Positions 1-8,319 of a DNA stretch of 64,000 nucleotides are shown piece by piece. The stretch is from the NCBI GenBank assembly GCA_963662945.1, contig OY759974.1, forward strand, positions 2,336,001-2,400,000, read 5' to 3'. Positions within the stretch are counted from its first letter, which is position 1, and each line of letters begins with the position of its first letter. The position numbers were made by a program, and so were the translations under genes. This stretch comes from Arcobacteraceae bacterium (GTDB lineage: Bacteria > Campylobacterota > Campylobacteria > Campylobacterales > Arcobacteraceae). The notes below the pieces were generated by a model, which searched no databases, was not told the origin of the DNA, and saw only the letters and a program-made list of their open reading frames with translations.

Positions 1-807
1 CTGTTCATCTATTTGATTTGTTTTTTTATTAAAATATGATTCCTCTAATTTATTATTTGAAAACTTTTTTCTTAGGTTCATAACTATATAAGAGATATTA
101 TTTAGTGGTTGTCTAAATTGATGTGCAATATTCCCTATCATCTCTCCTGTTTTTGCGAGTTTTGATTGTTGTAATAACATATTTTCATAATCTGTTTTTT
201 GTTGTTGTAGGTTAGTGTATTTATAAGATATGGATATTGTAAACAAAATAGCTTCTAAAGCAAATGCCACTAAAACGATATCTAACAATCCAGACTCTGT
301 ATAGATATGTTTAAAATTAAATATAAAGAGTAGCAAACAAAATAGTGACCATCCTATTACATACACTAAAGTTGGTTTGTGTCCATCTTTAATATTAAAA
401 ATAACAGATATAAATAAAATAGCATAAATTACAGTATAGGGAATATATTCAAAAAGTATATAGTGGTAAAATGAGGTAAGTATTACGATATTTAAAAGTA
501 GGGTGTTTATGATAAGCTCTTTAGTGTTTTTAATAGTTGGTAGAAATTTACCTTTATAAAATGATAGGGCAAACACAATAGCACTAAATGTTGCAAGTAA
601 TAAAAATATATCTTGTGCTATTTTATTGTCATAAAAGAGGTTACTATATAATATTATATATCCTAAAGAGAAAACTTGCATAAAACAGTAGCTAATATAG
701 ATTAACTCTTTTGAGGCAATATATCTTATCAGAGTATAAACAATAGTCATAAAAACTATACCAAAAGTGATACCATAAAACAGTATCATGGTTATATCAT
801 AATTCAA
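1..807 (-). CDS. Membrane sensor histidine kinase (multi-TM, 7TM-DISM-like input plus HisKA); runs off the window start
   Basis: Not in the ORF track. Manual translation from TTG 807 (or ATG 789): MNYDITMILFYGITFGIVFMTIVYTLIRY..., several hydrophobic segments, then the H-box QQSKLAKTGEMIGNIAHQFRQPLNNIS. Open to position 1 and overlaps the upstream regulator stop. Confidence 0.9.
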   Translation of the reverse strand, partial: MNYDITMILFYGITFGIVFMTIVYTLIRYIASKELIYISYCFMQVFSLGYIILYSNLFYDNKIAQDIFLLLATFSAIVFALSFYKGKFLPTIKNTKELIINTLLLNIVILTSFYHYILFEYIPYTVIYAILFISVIFNIKDGHKPTLVYVIGWSLFCLLLFIFNFKHIYTESGLLDIVLVAFALEAILFTISISYKYTNLQQQKTDYENMLLQQSKLAKTGEMIGNIAHQFRQPLNNISYIVMNLRKKFSNNKLEESYFNKKTNQIDEQ

Positions 808-1462
808 TTTTATATCCTGTACCAGAGAGATTAGAAATAGTATCTTTTGGGAGTTTTGATTTTAGATTTTTAATAACAGTTTTAAGTGCATCTTTTGTCA
901 TAACAGAATCATACCAAATATAATTTTCTATCTCTTCATAAGTAACATATCTTGTCTTATTTTTAATAAGAAGTGAGAGTAAGTCTAACTCTTTCGTACG
1001 AAGTTTCACAATCTCATTATTAGTGATCAAAGTTTGATTATAAGTATCAAATAAAGTATTCTTGGAAAGATTAACTATATTTGTATTGTTGTTTTTAATG
1101 TTTTCTATACATAAGTTTATAGCTTCATCAAATTCTTTTTCTTCAATAGGTTTTACTAAATACTTGATGAGTTTAAGTTCGATTGCTTGAAATAAATATT
1201 CTTTATCACTATATGCCGTAGTGATAATAACTTGTGTTGTATCATCTTTTTCTCGTATTTTTTTTACAAACTCCAAACCATTTATTTTTGGCATATTTAT
1301 ATCTGTAATAATAATATCTGGTTTATGAATATTGTATAGACTCAAAGCATCAATAGCATTTGAAGCATCATAAATTGTATCAAAATAGTTTTCTAAATAT
1401 TCAATACCATTTTCACGAGCTATCTCATCATCTTCTACATAGAGTACAGTTATATTTTTCAC
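797..1462 (-). CDS. OmpR/PhoB-family response regulator (REC plus winged helix)
   Basis: LYVEDD...IITDINMPKINGLE...ITTAY...KYLVKP receiver motifs; C-terminal ALKTVIKNLKSKL...GTGYKI wHTH; GTG start. Confidence 0.92.
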   Translation of the reverse strand: MKNITVLYVEDDEIARENGIEYLENYFDTIYDASNAIDALSLYNIHKPDIIITDINMPKINGLEFVKKIREKDDTTQVIITTAYSDKEYLFQAIELKLIKYLVKPIEEKEFDEAINLCIENIKNNNTNIVNLSKNTLFDTYNQTLITNNEIVKLRTKELDLLSLLIKNKTRYVTYEEIENYIWYDSVMTKDALKTVIKNLKSKLPKDTISNLSGTGYKIEL

Positions 1463-1590
1463 GAATTTATTTTCTCTTAATTATGTGCAATTTACCTAAA
1501 CATAGATAGTCTTTTATTGTATCTTTTTTCAAATTTATTTGGACTTATAATAGGTTGATACTATTATCTTAATCTATTTAAAATATCTAA

Positions 1591-1687
1591 AACTCCTATC
1601 CCAAATATTTCCTCGTTCCAGTTCTCTTGAGGTGGAATAAGAAATTTATTCATCTAGGCACTATTCACTTTGATAGAGCCTTTTTTT
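1591..1687 (+). ncRNA. Candidate small RNA (~97 nt) with intrinsic terminator
   Basis: TAAAAT -10-like box at 1579-1584; CU-rich 5' end (ACUCCUAUCCC); central imperfect stem; hairpin 1656-1681 followed by T7. The downstream gene has its own TGgTATAGT at 1716-1724. Confidence 0.4.
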
Positions 1688-1759
1688 ATTCCCACATTTG
1701 AGAGGTTAAGATATATGGTATAGTTTTTGAATATTAAAAAATAAACACAAAGGAATTCT

Positions 1760-2089
1760 ATGGTTTGTAAATTTCAAGAGATAAGTGATTTTTTTCAAAA
1801 GTATCCACAACTTATAGATGGCATTCAAGAACAAGAGTTGCAAGAGTTATTTGAAACATTCCCACATGCATGTAAATTTGTAAAATCACTTGATGAGGAT
1901 ATTGTTAATTGTGATAATTTGGAAGTAGTATCAGGGAAAACTTTAGAACTACTTGATAATGCGTATGAACACGAATATACAAAAGATGATATTACAAATT
2001 TTGCTGGTGCTATATGCAAAGTATTTGATATTGTTAAAGCACCAAAATATCATGTTCCATTTATTATAGTTATGTTGTCTAAACTCTGA
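1760..2089 (+). CDS. Hypothetical protein, acidic, 109 aa
   Basis: ORF with AAGGA RBS and an extended -10 upstream; no recognisable motif. Confidence 0.75.
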   Translation: MVCKFQEISDFFQKYPQLIDGIQEQELQELFETFPHACKFVKSLDEDIVNCDNLEVVSGKTLELLDNAYEHEYTKDDITNFAGAICKVFDIVKAPKYHVPFIIVMLSKL

Positions 2090-2116
2090 TAGTAACTGTT
2101 GTTATGTAAACAATTA

Positions 2117-2962
2117 CTATCTTATCTCAAACTTCAACTCCTCTAGTCTAGCAATCCTATCTGCAGTTGTAGGATGTGTTCTAAATAAATCTCCAAAACT
2201 TATATTATGTCCACTAAATGGATTGACTATAAACATATGAGCACTCTCTTGTGTTGCGTTATGAAGTGTCCCTCTTTGTGCATATTGTTCAAGTTTTGAA
2301 AGAGCTGATTGTAAAAACTCAGGAGCACCAGTAAGTCTTGCTGCACCTTCATCTGCCATAAACTCTCTACTTCTACTTACACTCATTTGTACAATTGAGG
2401 CTGCTATTGGTAAAAGAATAGCTAAAAGTATCATCACAATTGGATGACCACCTCTTTGGTTGTTTCCACCAAAAAATGCATTAAATTGCATAATATTTGC
2501 TATCCAAGCAATAGCACCTGCAACAGTTGCTGCAATAGTTCCTATAAGTATGTCATAATGTTTAACATGTGATAATTCATGAGCGATAACCGCTTCTATC
2601 TCTTTTTCAGTAAGTATTTCTAACAAGCCACTTGTAACTGCAACGGCAGCATTCTTTGGGTTTCTCCCAGTTGCAAAAGCATTTGGAATATTATCTTGGA
2701 TGATATACACTTTTGGCATTGGAATATTTGCTTTATTTATAAGTCTAGCAACTATTTTGTAGATAAAGTGATTTGTTGAAAGTTCTTGTGCTTCATAGTG
2801 TGCTAAAACTTGTTTATCTGAATAATAATATGCATAAAAATTCATAGCACCTACAATAATGAGTGCTATCATAGCTCCATTATTTCCTGCAAAATAAAAT
2901 CCAACAGTTACAAATATAATTGAAAGCAATGATAATAAAAATATTGTTTTAATTTGTTCCAT
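2117..2962 (-). CDS. htpX: Zinc metalloprotease HtpX (M48)
   Basis: [16 protein letters not shown] (HExxH), [13 protein letters not shown] and THPTTADRI motifs. Start moved to ATG 2962 (MEQIKT), which has a GAGGA RBS. Confidence 0.95.
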
Positions 2963-3012
2963 TATAATCCTCTTATTTATTTTATTTTTTATAATAAAAT
3001 AGTAGCCAAATA

Positions 3013-3039
3013 TTAGCACTTGAAATCTTATAGTGCTAA
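3013..3039. promoter_or_regulatory. CIRCE-like inverted repeat (putative HrcA operator) upstream of htpX
   Basis: TTAGCACTT-GAAATCTTA-TAGTGCTAA versus consensus TTAGCACTC-N9-GAGTGCTAA: 16/18 match with an exact 9-nt spacer. Confidence 0.75.
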
Positions 3040-3131
3040 ATTAATTTATAACTTAAATATTTATTTTAATCTTGTAGTATGTAGTTAATATTTTATATAA
3101 TTTTAGTTACTATATTAAAAACTTTCTAGGG

Positions 3132-4286
3132 ATGAAAATGTTTGATACACTTACAGCATTATATGTTGAAGATGAAATTTTGGTTAGTGATATGGTGTTA
3201 GGATTACTTCAGAAATTTTTTAAAGAAGTAATGTTTGCACAAAATGGTCAAGAAGGATTGGATATATATTCTCAATATCAAGATAAAATTGACATTATCA
3301 TTACGGACATTAATATGCCTAAAATGGATGGTTTACAAATGTGTTCAAAAGTTAGAGAAATTGATCAAACAATCCCAATCATAATTACAACAGCGTATAA
3401 CGACAAGGATTTTTTACATCAAGCAATTGAATTAGGTGTATCAAAATTTGTAACAAAACCTATGGATATGTCCTTACTTCTTGATAGTATTAAAAAAAGT
3501 GTTGAACCTATACTTTTAAAACAAAATTTAGAAAAAGAAAGAGAATTGTACGAGGAAGAGAGAGTAAGAAATGCTAAGTTTGCCGCAACTGGAGAATTAG
3601 CAGCCGGTATAACACATGAAATAAACACACCACTTACATATATTAAAGCCAACTTTGAAATGTTAGGTTATGATATCGAAGATTTACCTGACTCTAAAGA
3701 AAAAGACAATATACAAAAATCATTAGAAAAAATTAATGATGGTTTACATAGAATAGAAAATATTGTAGGTTCAATGCGAGAGATGTCTCAACAATCTACA
3801 GTGAACAAAGAAAAAGTAAATATATATTCTACAATTATTACGGCAGCAACATTAGCATATAATAAAATAAAACATATTTCTCATGTGTATATAAACGGAA
3901 AAGAATTTAATTTAGATATGGATAAAAATGAATTTGAATTTATAGCAGAGGCACAATTACAAAGAATTGAACAAGTATGGATTATTATCATCAATAATGC
4001 GATGGATGAGTTAATGAAAATGGAAAAGTTTGATGATAGAAAACTAGACATTAGTATCAGCTCTGAAGATGAAAATATAGTTATTGTATTTAAGGATAAT
4101 GCAGGAGGGATTGATATAAATGTAATGCCCCATATTTTTGAACCATTTAAAGGAACGAAGAAATCATCAGGAATGGGGATAGGATTAAGTATAGCAAAAA
4201 AAATTATACAAGAGCAAGGGGATTGTAAAATAGAGGCATATAATGAAGATAATGGAGCAGTTTTTAAAATTACGTTAAAAAAATAA
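3132..4286 (+). CDS. Cytoplasmic hybrid REC-histidine kinase (REC-HisKA-HATPase)
   Basis: N-terminal receiver (LYVEDE, ITDINMP, KFVTKP); H-box GELAAGITHEINTPL; N box IINNAMD; G boxes DNAGGI and GMGIGLSI. Confidence 0.92.
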   Translation: MKMFDTLTALYVEDEILVSDMVLGLLQKFFKEVMFAQNGQEGLDIYSQYQDKIDIIITDINMPKMDGLQMCSKVREIDQTIPIIITTAYNDKDFLHQAIELGVSKFVTKPMDMSLLLDSIKKSVEPILLKQNLEKERELYEEERVRNAKFAATGELAAGITHEINTPLTYIKANFEMLGYDIEDLPDSKEKDNIQKSLEKINDGLHRIENIVGSMREMSQQSTVNKEKVNIYSTIITAATLAYNKIKHISHVYINGKEFNLDMDKNEFEFIAEAQLQRIEQVWIIIINNAMDELMKMEKFDDRKLDISISSEDENIVIVFKDNAGGIDINVMPHIFEPFKGTKKSSGMGIGLSIAKKIIQEQGDCKIEAYNEDNGAVFKITLKK

Positions 4287-4309
4287 TTTACTTAAAATAA
4301 AGGAACTAT

Positions 4310-4675
4310 ATGAAAAAAGTAATGATTATCGATGATGAATTAGATATTTTAGATGTTTTAGAAAGATTTTTATCAAGAAAAGGTAAATTGGAAGTAGAAA
4401 CTTATTCAAATGCAGAATCTGCTTTAAAAAAATTACGAGCAAAGCCCTATGATCTTATTTTATCTGATATTATGATGCCATTAGTAAGTGGCATAGATAT
4501 ACTTAAAGAAGTAAAAAGCTTTAAACCAAATAGTAAAATAATACTAATGACAGCATATAGTAGCCAAACAAAAATTGATATAAGTGAAAAATTTGGGATT
4601 GATGAATATATTAAAAAACCATTTGAGAATTTAAATGAAGTTGAAAAGAAAATATATTTTTTATTAGGTATATAA
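4310..4675 (+). CDS. Single-domain response regulator (CheY-like REC)
   Basis: IIDDE, LSDIMMP, LMTAY, YIKKPF; no output domain. Confidence 0.92.
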   Translation: MKKVMIIDDELDILDVLERFLSRKGKLEVETYSNAESALKKLRAKPYDLILSDIMMPLVSGIDILKEVKSFKPNSKIILMTAYSSQTKIDISEKFGIDEYIKKPFENLNEVEKKIYFLLGI

Positions 4676-4751
4676 TGGCGACCCCGATAAGATTCGAACT
4701 TATGTTTACTGGAGGAAATCCAGTCGTCCTTGGCCACTAGACGACAGGGTC
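4676..4751 (-). tRNA. tRNA-Glu (anticodon UUC), atypical (C37, A32-U38, A/U-rich T-stem), CCA encoded
   Basis: Reverse complement GACCCTG TC GTCT AGTGGCCAA GGAC G ACTGG ATTTCCT CCAGT AAAC ATAAG TTCGAAT CTTAT CGGGGTC G CCA folds into a complete 76-nt cloverleaf. Minus-strand TATAAT at 4766-4771. Confidence 0.93.
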
Positions 4752-4793
4752 ATTTGAAAAATGGCATTATAGTATAAGGGGAGTTTATGATAG

Positions 4794-4816
4794 CTTAAGG
4801 ATGTAATATCCTTAAG
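4794..4816 (-). terminator. Hairpin at the trpA 3' end
   Basis: CTTAAGGAT-GTAAT-ATCCTTAAG perfect 9-bp inverted repeat overlapping the trpA stop; weak U-tract. Confidence 0.45.
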
Positions 4817-5552
4817 AGTTTATTTGTTCTTTAATATTTGAAGCTATTTGCGTTATTCTCTTTATCTTTTCATTATTGCTTAAACTAGTATCTATAAGAT
4901 GTTTTACAAAAGCACTACCAACAATAACTCCATCTACATTTTTAGCTTTTTCTTGTGCGTTTTTTTCATCAACACCAAAACCTAAGTAAATAGGTGTAGA
5001 TGTTGAAGTTCTAATGTTTTCAATGATCTCTGTTAAATCTTCATTTGCACCACTTCCAGTAATTCCAGCATAAGCAACCATATAAATAAATTTTTGACTA
5101 TTTTCTGTAATAGTTTTTATTCTCTCTAGACTATCTGTTGGTGCTACAAAACTAATAATAGTTTGATCATATTTTCCAAAAAGTTCTCTAAAAGGTTCAG
5201 CCTCTTCATGTGGTAAATCTGGAATAATAGAACCTTGTATTCCATATTCTTTTCCTTTTGCCAAAAACTTTTCTAAGCCATAATGAAAAAATGGATTCAT
5301 GTATCCCATCCATAAGGTATCCATTTTAGGTGCAACTTGACTTGTTATCTCAAATAAATCTTTTAATTTAAAACCATTTTGGAGTGCCAATAAACTTGCT
5401 TTTTCTATTACTGGACCATCTGCAACTGGATCTGAAAAAGGAATACCTAATTCTAAGGTATCAACACCAGCTTCTTGCATGCTTAAGGCTAAATCAACTG
5501 TAAAGTTATTACTAGGGAGAGATGCGGTTATAAATCCAACTAATTTTTTCAT
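4812..5552 (-). CDS. trpA: Tryptophan synthase alpha subunit
   Basis: LELGIPFSDPVADGPVI, GITG, LGFGV, DGVIVGSAFV; start set at MKKLVG (AGGA RBS). Confidence 0.96.
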   Translation of the reverse strand: MKKLVGFITASLPSNNFTVDLALSMQEAGVDTLELGIPFSDPVADGPVIEKASLLALQNGFKLKDLFEITSQVAPKMDTLWMGYMNPFFHYGLEKFLAKGKEYGIQGSIIPDLPHEEAEPFRELFGKYDQTIISFVAPTDSLERIKTITENSQKFIYMVAYAGITGSGANEDLTEIIENIRTSTSTPIYLGFGVDEKNAQEKAKNVDGVIVGSAFVKHLIDTSLSNNEKIKRITQIASNIKEQINS

Positions 5553-6513: not shown

Positions 6514-8319
6514 ATGGATAGTAAGAGAAGTATATTAACTGCACTTGCAATTGCAATGGCAGTAATTTTTTTAGCAATGATTATTAATATTACTATGAAC
6601 TTAAGAGACTTCGGGTTTAATAGTGCAAAAACTAAAGCACAATTAGTTGCTGATAGTGTTAAAAATGGCTTAACTGCACATATGGTAAATGGAATTATGG
6701 AGAATAGAGACTTCTACATTAACCAAACAAAAAACTTACAACATATTGATGATATTTGGATTGTAAGGTCTCACACTGTAAATAAACAATATGGAGAAGG
6801 TAAAGAACTTATACATGATAATATTGATAAAGAAGTTTTGAAAACTGGCGTATCAGTTGAAAAAATAAATGAAGAGTTACTTGGACATAGCACTTATCGT
6901 ATTACTATACCTTACAAAGCAGAAATTACAAAAGAGATTAATTGTTTATCTTGTCATGAAGCAAAAGTTGGCGATGTTTTAGGTGTTATATCTATGGTGA
7001 TGACTATGGATGATATTAAACAAATGAGTATAAAAATTATTGCTTTAACTTCATTTATATCATTATTTTTAATACTTTTCATTATATGGTTTGTAAAACG
7101 ATTAATAGTGCCATATCTTTCTATATTTGATTCTATTAAAGATGTAATGAAACGAGCACATAATGGTGATTATAGTGCAAGAATTGAAGAATTTAATAGT
7201 GGTGAAGCAAAAAATGTTGCACATTGGATTAATGAACATATGAGTAAATTACAAAGTATTTTAGTCAATATTGAAGATAAAATAGATATTTTCCTTACAG
7301 CACATAAATCGAATAGTGTATTAGATCCTATGGTTGATGTACAAAATACAGTATCAAGGTTAGCAGATATTTATAGATTTAGAAAAACTATTGAACATGA
7401 TGAAAGTATTGAAGAAGTATATAAAAGAATTGCTACAATACTTGAAGATAAGTTTAAATTAACTGATTTTAATTTTCTTGAAGCAGATACAACAAATAAA
7501 AAAGTGGAAGTTGTTTATGTAAATAAAGAATTAAAATGTGACCCGCTAGCAAAAGGATGTCGTGCAGATAGAACAAATACTTTAGTAGATTCTTGTCAGT
7601 TTAAAAAAGTATGTGGTGCAATAGATGAAGAAAATTCATATTTATGCATTCCTTATTCAATATCAAATGATATGGATTTTGTTATTTCTATAAGTACTGC
7701 TTCAAAAGAAGAAAACGAAAAATTAAGAGAGATGTTGCCTTTTATTCAAGATTATGTTGATGCTGCAAAACCTGAAATTGTAAGTAAAAAGCTGATGCAA
7801 ATTCTTGAAAAAAATGCAAGTACAGATCCTCTGACAGGTTTATATAATAGAAAATATCTTGAAAGATATATTGACGGTTCATTATATAGCGGTATGTATA
7901 AAAATATACCTTGTGGATTAATGATGGTAGATATAGATTTCTTTAAACTTATTAATGATAATTATGGGCATGACATAGGAGATATTGCTATAAAAACTAT
8001 TGCAAATACTCTCATGGATGTTATTGGTGATACTGATGTTGTAATTAGATTTGGTGGTGAAGAATTTATTGTTATATTAAATAACTGTACAGAAGAACGA
8101 CTTCATGATACAGCTGAAAAAATTAGAATAGCATTCTCTCAACAAAAAATACAAGCAGGTGCAGAAATCTTTAGTAAAACAGTTAGTATTGGAACAGCAT
8201 TATTCCCAAATAAAGATCACAGTTTCTGGAAATATGTAAAACAAAGTGATGTTGCTTTATACCAAGCAAAACATTCAGGAAGAAATAAAGTAGTAAGATT
8301 TGAAGAGGGGATGGAATAA
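6514..8319 (+). CDS. Membrane diguanylate cyclase with periplasmic heme-c (CxxCH) sensor, HAMP-like and Cys-rich GAF-like regions
   Basis: Two TM segments flanking CLSCH; TDPLTGLYNR, DIDFFK..ND.YGH..GD and RFGGEEF motifs. Confidence 0.92.
   Translation: MDSKRSILTALAIAMAVIFLAMIINITMNLRDFGFNSAKTKAQLVADSVKNGLTAHMVNGIMENRDFYINQTKNLQHIDDIWIVRSHTVNKQYGEGKELIHDNIDKEVLKTGVSVEKINEELLGHSTYRITIPYKAEITKEINCLSCHEAKVGDVLGVISMVMTMDDIKQMSIKIIALTSFISLFLILFIIWFVKRLIVPYLSIFDSIKDVMKRAHNGDYSARIEEFNSGEAKNVAHWINEHMSKLQSILVNIEDKIDIFLTAHKSNSVLDPMVDVQNTVSRLADIYRFRKTIEHDESIEEVYKRIATILEDKFKLTDFNFLEADTTNKKVEVVYVNKELKCDPLAKGCRADRTNTLVDSCQFKKVCGAIDEENSYLCIPYSISNDMDFVISISTASKEENEKLREMLPFIQDYVDAAKPEIVSKKLMQILEKNASTDPLTGLYNRKYLERYIDGSLYSGMYKNIPCGLMMVDIDFFKLINDNYGHDIGDIAIKTIANTLMDVIGDTDVVIRFGGEEFIVILNNCTEERLHDTAEKIRIAFSQQKIQAGAEIFSKTVSIGTALFPNKDHSFWKYVKQSDVALYQAKHSGRNKVVRFEEGME

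Follow-up and report, generated by a model that had tools for sequence, protein, structure and literature searches.

A conserved solo tRNA-Glu with an unusual anticodon loop and T-stem in Arcobacteraceae: a member of the Campylobacterota G73 lineage

Background

Protein synthesis and tetrapyrrole synthesis diverge at glutamyl-tRNA (Glu-tRNA), and its partition in the cell is a long-standing question. Here we examined a tRNA-Glu(UUC) gene, called the solo tRNA below, that lies at positions 4676-4751 on the minus strand of a 64,000-nucleotide stretch of an Arcobacteraceae genome (assembly GCA_963662945.1, contig OY759974.1, positions 2,336,001 to 2,400,000); this whole stretch is referred to as the window. 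A first-pass annotation, made from the sequence alone, had noted the odd anticodon loop and T-stem of this gene and interpreted it as a chargeable tRNA-Glu that is kept out of translation. The observation was confirmed and the interpretation partly supported by our analysis.

Two tRNA-Glu species have been described in Helicobacter pylori, of which tRNAGlu1 has G73 and tRNAGlu2 has A73, and GluRS1 charges both of them (Chang and Hendrickson 2009; PMC2777447). The same source locates the major GluRS determinants in the augmented D-stem and names positions 36, 37 and 38 as identity elements of the E. coli GluRS. The tRNAGlu1 of H. pylori resembles the solo tRNA in its sequence type, with a GAC... 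acceptor stem, G73, a length of 76 nucleotides (nt), a 9-nt D-loop and an A51-U63 pair. Like the solo tRNA, it coexists with a canonical tRNA-Glu of the A73 type.

A tRNA-Glu of H. pylori that binds EF-Tu weakly is the phenomenon that is already known and unexplained, and the solo tRNA would be a variant of that kind. The primary paper on the H. pylori tRNA is reportedly that of Cathopoulis et al. in 2008. For Glu-UUC of H. pylori, Table 4 of Schrader and Uhlenbeck (2011; PMC3239215) lists a calculated affinity of -8.0 kcal/mol and measured values of -8.6 and -8.4 kcal/mol for chimeras, and for Glu-UUC of 'Thiomicrospira denitrificans' a calculated -8.1. The class mean is given there as -10.4 kcal/mol, both outliers bear the remark 'another gene copy present', and the function of the H. 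pylori outlier is called unknown.

The np-tRNA-Gly (non-proteinogenic tRNA-Gly) of staphylococci carries A51-U63 in place of G51-C63 (PMC6103715), a T-stem criterion that was confirmed in 2025 (PMC12256121). The first-pass annotation had drawn this analogy, which proved closer than it had supposed, since np-tRNA-Gly also carries C37 (PMC6103715). The solo tRNA therefore shows both hallmarks of np-tRNA-Gly(UCC), C37 and A51-U63, and both kinds of tRNA coexist with proteinogenic copies. The staphylococcal tRNA differs in its amino acid and phylum, in having a known client (FemXAB), and in lying in a polycistronic tRNA/rRNA unit, whereas the Arcobacteraceae gene stands alone.

Additional or specialised tRNA-Glu species have been linked to tetrapyrrole synthesis elsewhere. 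In Acidithiobacillus ferrooxidans three of four tRNA-Glu supply heme synthesis as well as protein synthesis, and GluTR does not use the fourth as a substrate (PMC4284751). That organism offers a likeness in its several tRNA-Glu species, its two GluRS and its partition between GluTR and translation; its specialised tRNA-Glu is, however, the protein-only one, whereas the solo tRNA would be the non-translational one. The plastid tRNA-Glu of Balanophora keeps the GluRS and GluTR determinants while its anticodon arm degenerates, and it has been proposed to serve tetrapyrrole synthesis only (PMC13128298). Here the likeness lies in a tRNA-Glu that is kept while its anticodon stem-loop loses decoding competence; Balanophora differs in that the tRNA is organellar, is not accompanied by a canonical plastid copy and degenerates in the anticodon itself, whereas the lineage of the solo tRNA keeps an unvarying UUC and deviates only in the T-stem and at positions 32, 33, 37 and 38. 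In Coxiella burnetii an extra tRNAGlu2(CUC) has been proposed, without proof, to feed heme synthesis (PMC5423948). It is likewise an additional tRNA-Glu, but it has a CUC anticodon and was acquired horizontally, and the case for it rests on codon usage and not on anomalies of the loop and T-stem.

Results

The solo gene is an intact, conserved tRNA-Glu(UUC)

The only tRNA that ARAGORN called in the window is the minus-strand tRNA-Glu(ttc) at 4676-4751, and the full Rfam model RF00005 matched it with 50.9 bits (E 5.8e-8) against a gathering threshold of 29 bits. The gene encodes 76 nt including discriminator G73 and the CCA end. Read on the minus strand, it runs GACCCUG/UC/GUCU/AGUGGCCAA/GGAC/G/ACUGG/AUUUCCU/CCAGU/AAAC and continues with AUAAG/UUCGAAU/CUUAU/CGGGGUC/G/CCA. 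The acceptor stem starts with GAC... and has G1-C72 as its top pair, the D-loop is 9 nt long, and the invariants of the tertiary fold and the CCA end are all intact.

The anticodon loop (4713..4719) reads A32 U33 U34 U35 C36 C37 U38, with the UUC anticodon at 4717-4715 and C37 at 4714. U33 and a purine at position 37 are near-universal rules of tRNA decoding. In the minimum-energy structure from RNAfold (-24.5 kcal/mol, z = -2.05), A32 pairs with U38, which lengthens the anticodon stem to 6 bp and leaves a 5-nt loop, as the first-pass annotation had proposed. The other cloverleaf features that it had listed were likewise all present by direct reading. The two halves of the T-stem, AUAAG for positions 49-53 (4699..4703, with A51 at 4701) and CUUAU for positions 61-65 (4687..4691, with U63 at 4689), form the pairs A49-U65, U50-A64, A51-U63, A52-U62 and G53-C61.

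The identity elements of an E. coli-type GluRS include U11-A24, U13-G22 with A46 and the absence of nucleotide 47. By direct reading this augmented D-helix is complete in the solo tRNA, and the UUC anticodon is present as well; in place of A37, the remaining element, it has C37. We infer from its sequence that the solo tRNA is charged with glutamate; the G73-type tRNA of H. pylori, which GluRS1 charges, has A37.

Full-length orthologs of the solo type were found in 20 of the 24 same-genus genomes of a first sample, at 76-100% identity. Throughout the Arcobacteraceae (family f1 of our sample), the exact loop AUUUCCU occurred on the solo type in 135 of 184 genomes and in 18 of 22 genera, whereas A37 versions occurred in 28 of the 184 genomes (14 with ACUUCAU, and hence C33; 7 with AUUUCAU; 7 with UUUUCAU). 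The searches used exact patterns, so these counts are lower bounds; with one genome standing in both lists, no fewer than 162 of the 184 genomes carry the gene. Matches among named genomes of the family came from Arcobacter, Aliarcobacter, Halarcobacter, Poseidonibacter and Ca. Marinarcus. The anticodon UUC was invariant among all orthologs seen.

Covariation was assessed in two alignments. In the first, made of 26 orthologs that come from several families, pairing held in 98.7% of stem cells and 13 of 21 pairs had changed on both sides; none of 500 shuffles attained the covariation observed. Among 47 distinct C37 sequences, picked with a search pattern in which the loop and the D-arm are fixed, so that invariance there is by construction, 99.0% of stem cells were paired and 142 cells were double-compensated, again with 0/500 shuffles as high. 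The T-loop and CCA were invariant in these C37 orthologs, and pair 51-63 was A-U or U-A in 42 of the 47. Because the stems are paired and covary, the loop is conserved and a -10 box is conserved upstream (see below), the gene is selected for its fold and expression, and C37 is neither an error nor a sign of decay. The solo tRNA-Glu is thus selected and is not a pseudogene, and the earlier argument that its fully paired stems speak against decay is borne out; a sequencing error at C37, which the first-pass annotation had considered, is ruled out by the identical loop in so many genomes of the family.

Two C37-type solo copies on different contigs were observed in G010, G110, G162 and G079 of the family and also in G638 of the f15 set. 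Genome G159 had both a C37 and a UUUUCAU version, which may reflect contamination of a metagenome-assembled genome (MAG) or a true duplication.

Canonical tRNA-Glu copies in the same genome

The genome of the window (G000), a single contig of 2.50 Mb, contains 44 tRNA genes by ARAGORN, and three of these are tRNA-Glu(UUC). Besides the solo gene there are two identical 75-nt canonical genes in a Lys-Val-Glu-Asp-Lys-Glu-Val-Asp cluster. Both have the loop UUUUCAU (U33, A37), the T-stem AGGAG/CUCCU (G50-C64, G51-C63) and A73, and the solo gene, with its GAC... acceptor stem, G73 and 9-nt D-loop, is of a different sequence type. The canonical partner that the first-pass annotation had suggested looking for therefore exists, in two copies, and the solo gene is not the only tRNA-Glu of the genome.

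Within the genus the canonical type is 95-100% identical, with matches in 24 of 28 genomes and mostly two copies in each. The canonical copies in genus g18 read TCATCTAAC. Wherever the G73 type deviated in our outputs, the A73 type always had U33, A37 and G51-C63. A canonical copy was found beside an aberrant or weak G73 type in 26 of the 27 genomes specifically checked, and the remaining genome is an incomplete MAG of 1.1 Mb. In G033, a genome in which a single tRNA-Glu was found, this was of the G73 type, but its loop was canonical and its T-stem read AGGGG.

We also observed that the four-codon boxes for Gly (UCC), Ala (UGC), Pro (UGG) and Arg CGN (UCG) of G000 are each read by one U34 anticodon; tRNA-Gly(GCC) and tRNA-Arg(ACG) were not detected among its 44 ARAGORN tRNAs.

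The G73 type across Campylobacterota and beyond

In other families of the order, the ordinary tRNA-Glu is the GAC.../G73/76-nt type, located in Lys-Glu-Val-Asp clusters and carrying the loop CUUUCAC and the T-stem AGGGG. By its sequence the solo tRNA belongs to this G73-type lineage of Campylobacterota, that of H. pylori tRNAGlu1, because its G73, its GAC.../...GUC acceptor stem, its length of 76 nt and its 9-nt D-loop match that type; both the acceptor and discriminator type and the coexisting A73 canonical copy were found. The first-pass annotation had allowed for a phylum-wide second isoacceptor, as in H. pylori, and this caveat proved correct, the solo tRNA being that second tRNA-Glu, the G73 type.

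Deviations at positions 33 and 37 of the G73 type were seen in four families, in copies that had a canonical partner in the checked set described above, and in these families the G73 type had A51-U63 almost throughout. In the Helicobacter-containing family f18 (37 genomes), position 37 was A in 14, U in 18, C in 2 and G in 3, with C33 in 3, and pair 51-63 was A-U in 33, G-U in 1 and G-C in 3. In f15, which is probably Sulfurimonas-like, the gene was found in 36 of 41 genomes, with the loop ACUUCAU (C33) in 34, AUUUCAU in 1 and UUUUCCA in 1, and nearly all genomes with the G73 gene had the T-stem AGAGG/CCUUU. The Nitratifractor-like family f6 had UUUUCC(G/A), and hence C37, in 6 of 20 genomes, with the T-stem AGAGG/CCUCU.

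The C37 form was confined to three families in a sample of 401 genomes of the phylum, namely f1 (19/23 plus the genome of the window itself), f6 (6/20) and f18 (2/118), and was absent from all other families of that sample, including f11 (0/158). Outside the phylum, C37 tRNA-Glu(UUC) appeared in about nine Planctomycetota records and in single records of Streptomyces, Saprospiraceae, Solirubrobacterales and Steroidobacteraceae, these records being drawn from 80 loci of which 27 are chance matches without a tRNA. A canonical copy was also present in the three Planctomycetota genomes tested. In the planctomycete order to which genome G200 belongs, only 1 of 61 genomes had the C37 form, so that it is sporadic there. 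In many members of the same order the CUUUCAC type is joined by a second tRNA-Glu(UUC), whose loop is CUUUCAA and whose variable region is GAGAG-like; this constitutes another two-type tRNA-Glu system.

No report of a tRNA-Glu with C33 or a non-purine at 37 in Campylobacterota was found in the literature, in a search that left supplements and subscription journals outside its scope.

Predicted affinity for EF-Tu

EF-Tu affinities were calculated with a T-stem model that sums the averaged ΔΔG values of PMC3239215 (Table 2) on a base of -10.1 kcal/mol, which we derived from four rows of Table 3 of that paper. The solo tRNA scored -9.5 kcal/mol and the canonical copy -10.6. Among 42 C37 sequences of the Arcobacteraceae type, 39 lay between -9.0 and -9.7, two were at -10.5 and one was not computable; the ortholog L086 has an A-A mismatch at 51-63.

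In genus g46 of family f18, the T-stem GGAAG/CUUUC of the G73 type (G49-C65, G50-U64, A51-U63) computed to exactly -8.0, and the AGAGG/CCUUU stem of the f15 type computed to -8.1. We infer that the g46 and f15 types are the published outliers of H. pylori and 'Thiomicrospira denitrificans', respectively; the published weak binder is taken to be the G73 species because the calculated values match. The g46 type differs from the solo tRNA in having the canonical loop CUUUCAC (A37) and a weaker T-stem (-8.0), and its gene is separated from the other tRNA-Glu gene by about 300 nt. The solo tRNA has C37 and A32-U38, its predicted EF-Tu defect is milder (-9.5), and its gene stands alone with its own -10 box.

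Promoter and gene surroundings

A TATAAT hexamer resembling a -10 box (4766..4771, minus strand) precedes the mature 5' end by 14 nt. A TAnAAT box at -12 to -26 from the mature 5' end was present at 21 of 22 loci from the first search for relatives and at 15 of 17 loci from other genera, and it was kept although the flanking genes differ between loci. A scanner for paired -35 and -10 hexamers made no call on the minus strand at the TATAAT box. The TATAAT box is probably the solo tRNA's own promoter, as the first-pass annotation had stated; the hexamer and its conservation support that claim, and the silence of the two-hexamer scanner does not.

Within its genus the solo gene occupies one syntenic locus, in the order panB, trpA and then the tRNA, regardless of the loop sequence. 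This synteny with trpA and panB was the only one that held, in genera g1, g24 and g25; across genera the neighbours of the solo tRNA included trpA, panB, response regulators, carB, Sel1-repeat genes, DsbD and ArgRS. No conserved partner gene was found by Pfam searches on the window flanks, by tblastn synteny, or by Pfam searches on 35 flanking open reading frames (ORFs) at 12 loci of other genera.

Around the tRNA in the window, at 797-4675 and 6514-8319, Pfam matches revealed abundant signalling genes, which encode a response regulator of the OmpR type, a hybrid histidine kinase that includes a receiver domain, a receiver protein that stands alone and a protein with GGDEF. A 10-bp palindromic hairpin (CTTAAGGAT...ATCCTTAAG) occupies 4794-4816, where it separates the stop of trpA from the -10 box of the tRNA. 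A T-rich run follows it on the plus strand, and this was the only terminator-like site in 4550-4950 (mean of 0.1 in shuffles). In two g18 genomes (L066:4050-6197 and L067:1978-2913) a ResIII/PLD helicase-nuclease gene and a Fic-domain gene lie directly downstream of the solo tRNA-Glu, which suggests that the tRNA gene may double as an insertion hot-spot.

GluRS and GluTR genes

GluTR (HemA) is represented in G000 by one PF05201 match of 150.7 bits. The genome encodes a canonical GluRS of 468 amino acids (aa) and GatB. It also encodes, at G000:C1:540211-544067 (L203, L205), a divergent second GluRS of 426 aa (TIGR00464, 333 bits) directly upstream of a GlnRS-YqeY fusion of 753 aa (NF011291, 1237 bits), so that the direct and the indirect route to Gln-tRNA both appear to be retained. 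Aligned by phmmer with the T. thermophilus enzyme, the second GluRS is covered to about residue 321, and three alignments that reach chain residue 400 at most do not include the anticodon-reading site. G033, with its single tRNA-Glu type, has one GluRS and a GlnRS-like gene. Counts of class-Ic synthetases in five other genomes showed no clear pattern with respect to a dedicated GluRS. Searches for a LanB-type glutamylation domain gave 0 matches, as did 14 control genomes (0/14).

Discussion

Canonical copies serve translation while decoding-critical bases drift in a conserved extra tRNA, and a job outside protein synthesis is therefore suggested. On present indications we take the solo tRNA, tentatively, to be a G73-lineage tRNA-Glu of the non-proteinogenic type that is under selection, with GluTR as its likeliest consumer. 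It would be a functional, separately transcribed second tRNA-Glu of that lineage. The A73 type, which is clustered and usually present in two or more copies, may have taken over decoding and so released the G73 lineage from the constraints of EF-Tu delivery and of ribosomal decoding, while the fold, the UUC anticodon and the GluRS-type identity elements would have stayed under selection. The tRNA would then be charged with Glu. It would bind EF-Tu more weakly, as predicted for the solo tRNA and as measured for the H. pylori tRNA-Glu whose calculated value the g46 type matches, and it would decode poorly owing to C37 and the closure by A32-U38. Its glutamate would be handed to a consumer outside the ribosome, most likely GluTR. 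HemA is named because it is the only widely conserved user of Glu-tRNA that is encoded in G000. The GluTR step is plausible, and the one hemA of G000 and the precedents of Balanophora plastids and A. ferrooxidans speak for it.

Extended to the phylum, the proposal is that the Campylobacterota G73 tRNA-Glu escaped the constraints of EF-Tu and decoding and became dedicated to tetrapyrrole synthesis via GluTR, or to an undiscovered glutamyl-transferase, with a signature of pyrimidine 37 or C33 together with A51-U63 evolving repeatedly. We regard this as possible and put it forward with some reserve. The signature would take the forms AUUUCCU in Arcobacteraceae, UUUUCC(G/A) in the Nitratifractor-like family, CUUUC(U/C/G)N in the Helicobacter-containing family and ACUUCAU in the Sulfurimonas-like family, with sporadic cases in Planctomycetota.

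Several results weigh against this reading of the solo tRNA as a non-proteinogenic Glu donor. Position 37 is an identity element of the E. coli GluRS (PMC2777447), and C37 might hamper charging. In Arcobacteraceae this position is only C or A and never G or U, which fits a retained constraint and not free drift. Some members of the lineage look fully canonical, namely those of g68 and the seven UUUUCAU and seven AUUUCAU genomes of the family, so that whatever job this tRNA has can do without the odd features. The predicted weakening of EF-Tu binding, about 1 kcal/mol, is below the threshold of 1.3 kcal/mol for an outlier (PMC3239215), and working elongator tRNAs from other classes span a range that includes -9.5 kcal/mol; the model behind both comparisons derives from the EF-Tu of T. 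thermophilus and of E. coli, and stems with G50-U64/A51-U63 are flagged in its source as non-additive (PMC3239215). The earlier wording 'excluded from the ribosome' was accordingly too strong on the strength of the T-stem alone, the predicted value being far from the -8.0 of H. pylori. As for the role in heme supply that the first-pass annotation had envisaged, we found no linkage to hemA, hemL, gltX or a transferase gene in the neighbourhoods of the solo tRNA, either in the window or in other genera, and GluTR was present in 37 of 37 genomes surveyed of another family, so that co-occurrence is uninformative and cannot discriminate. The window had also been described as rich in cytochrome c genes, which a count of CXXCH does not bear out: the motif occurs in only 4 of its 61 ORFs, once in each.

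The main alternative is that the solo tRNA is an ordinary, inefficient elongator, a minor or back-up isodecoder whose own promoter is perhaps active under specific conditions. Tolerance of C37 or C33 would then be due to the strength of the C36-G codon pair and to the canonical copies, which bear the main load. An elongator would be expected to keep what this tRNA keeps, that is, an invariant UUC, an intact tertiary fold and CCA end, a position 37 limited to C or A in Arcobacteraceae and a predicted EF-Tu affinity only about 1 kcal/mol below that of the canonical copy; moreover, the same lineage provides the canonical tRNA-Glu within tRNA clusters in several families. We nevertheless consider this explanation rather unlikely. 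The rules for positions 33 and 37 are broken in four families and only in copies with a canonical partner (26 of 27 checked), and pair 51-63 is systematically weak in this type while canonical copies retain G51-C63. The combination of A32-U38 and C37 reportedly, following Olejniczak and Uhlenbeck, runs contrary to the needs of a weak, A/U-rich anticodon. The H. pylori tRNA-Glu to which the g46 value corresponds binds EF-Tu poorly in vitro (PMC3239215).

A non-proteinogenic Glu-tRNA could also serve a client other than GluTR, such as a glutamyl-transferase acting in peptide, cell-envelope or natural-product glutamylation, a regulatory role, or a dedicated pair with the divergent second GluRS that G000 keeps although it has a GlnRS. 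Such a tRNA would display the same np-type signature as one that supplies GluTR. The synthetase genes are suggestive in this respect: G000 combines the 468-aa GluRS with the divergent 426-aa GluRS and the GlnRS-YqeY fusion, whereas G033 has the simpler set, and a single mutation in H. pylori GluRS2 switches that enzyme to tRNAGlu1, the G73 type (PMC2777447). Against this, it is GluRS1 and not GluRS2 that charges the G73 type in H. pylori (PMC2777447), and since GatB is present in G000, its second GluRS may still serve tRNA-Gln. No genus examined had a conserved transferase gene next to the solo tRNA, and the lack of LanB-type matches adds a weak point, the control genomes having given none either. 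Overall we judge a client of this sort improbable.

It is very improbable that the solo tRNA is a redundant duplicate drifting to loss, a young pseudogene, or a mere DNA feature such as an integration site: its faster evolution than that of the canonical copies (76-100% vs 95-100% identity in the genus), single stem mismatches in a few orthologs (anticodon stem 97.0% paired; A-A at 51-63 in L086) and the mobile or defence-like genes downstream at the two g18 loci (ResIII/PLD, Fic) are outweighed by stems that are 99% paired with abundant compensatory changes over 47 distinct sequences, by the invariant T-loop and CCA (the loop and D-arm being fixed by the selection pattern), by a -10 box conserved in unrelated gene contexts, and by the presence of the gene in at least 162 of 184 family genomes and in the further families f6, f18 and f15.

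Conclusions

What had been a single oddity of H. pylori, with its 'function unknown' since 2008-2011, becomes a selected phenotype of a whole lineage, seen in hundreds of genomes from four families, in which U33 and the purine at position 37 are replaced in clade-specific ways and which goes together with a canonical partner copy, compensatory changes in the stems and a conserved promoter. The combination of a non-purine at 37 with A51-U63 may be a general signature by which non-proteinogenic tRNAs can be found in genomes. If the Campylobacterota G73 lineage is indeed dedicated to GluTR or to an undiscovered glutamyl-transferase, no earlier bacterial tRNA-Glu would have been set aside for a pathway outside the ribosome, and the weakly EF-Tu-binding tRNA-Glu of H. 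pylori, without an assigned function since 2008, would be explained.

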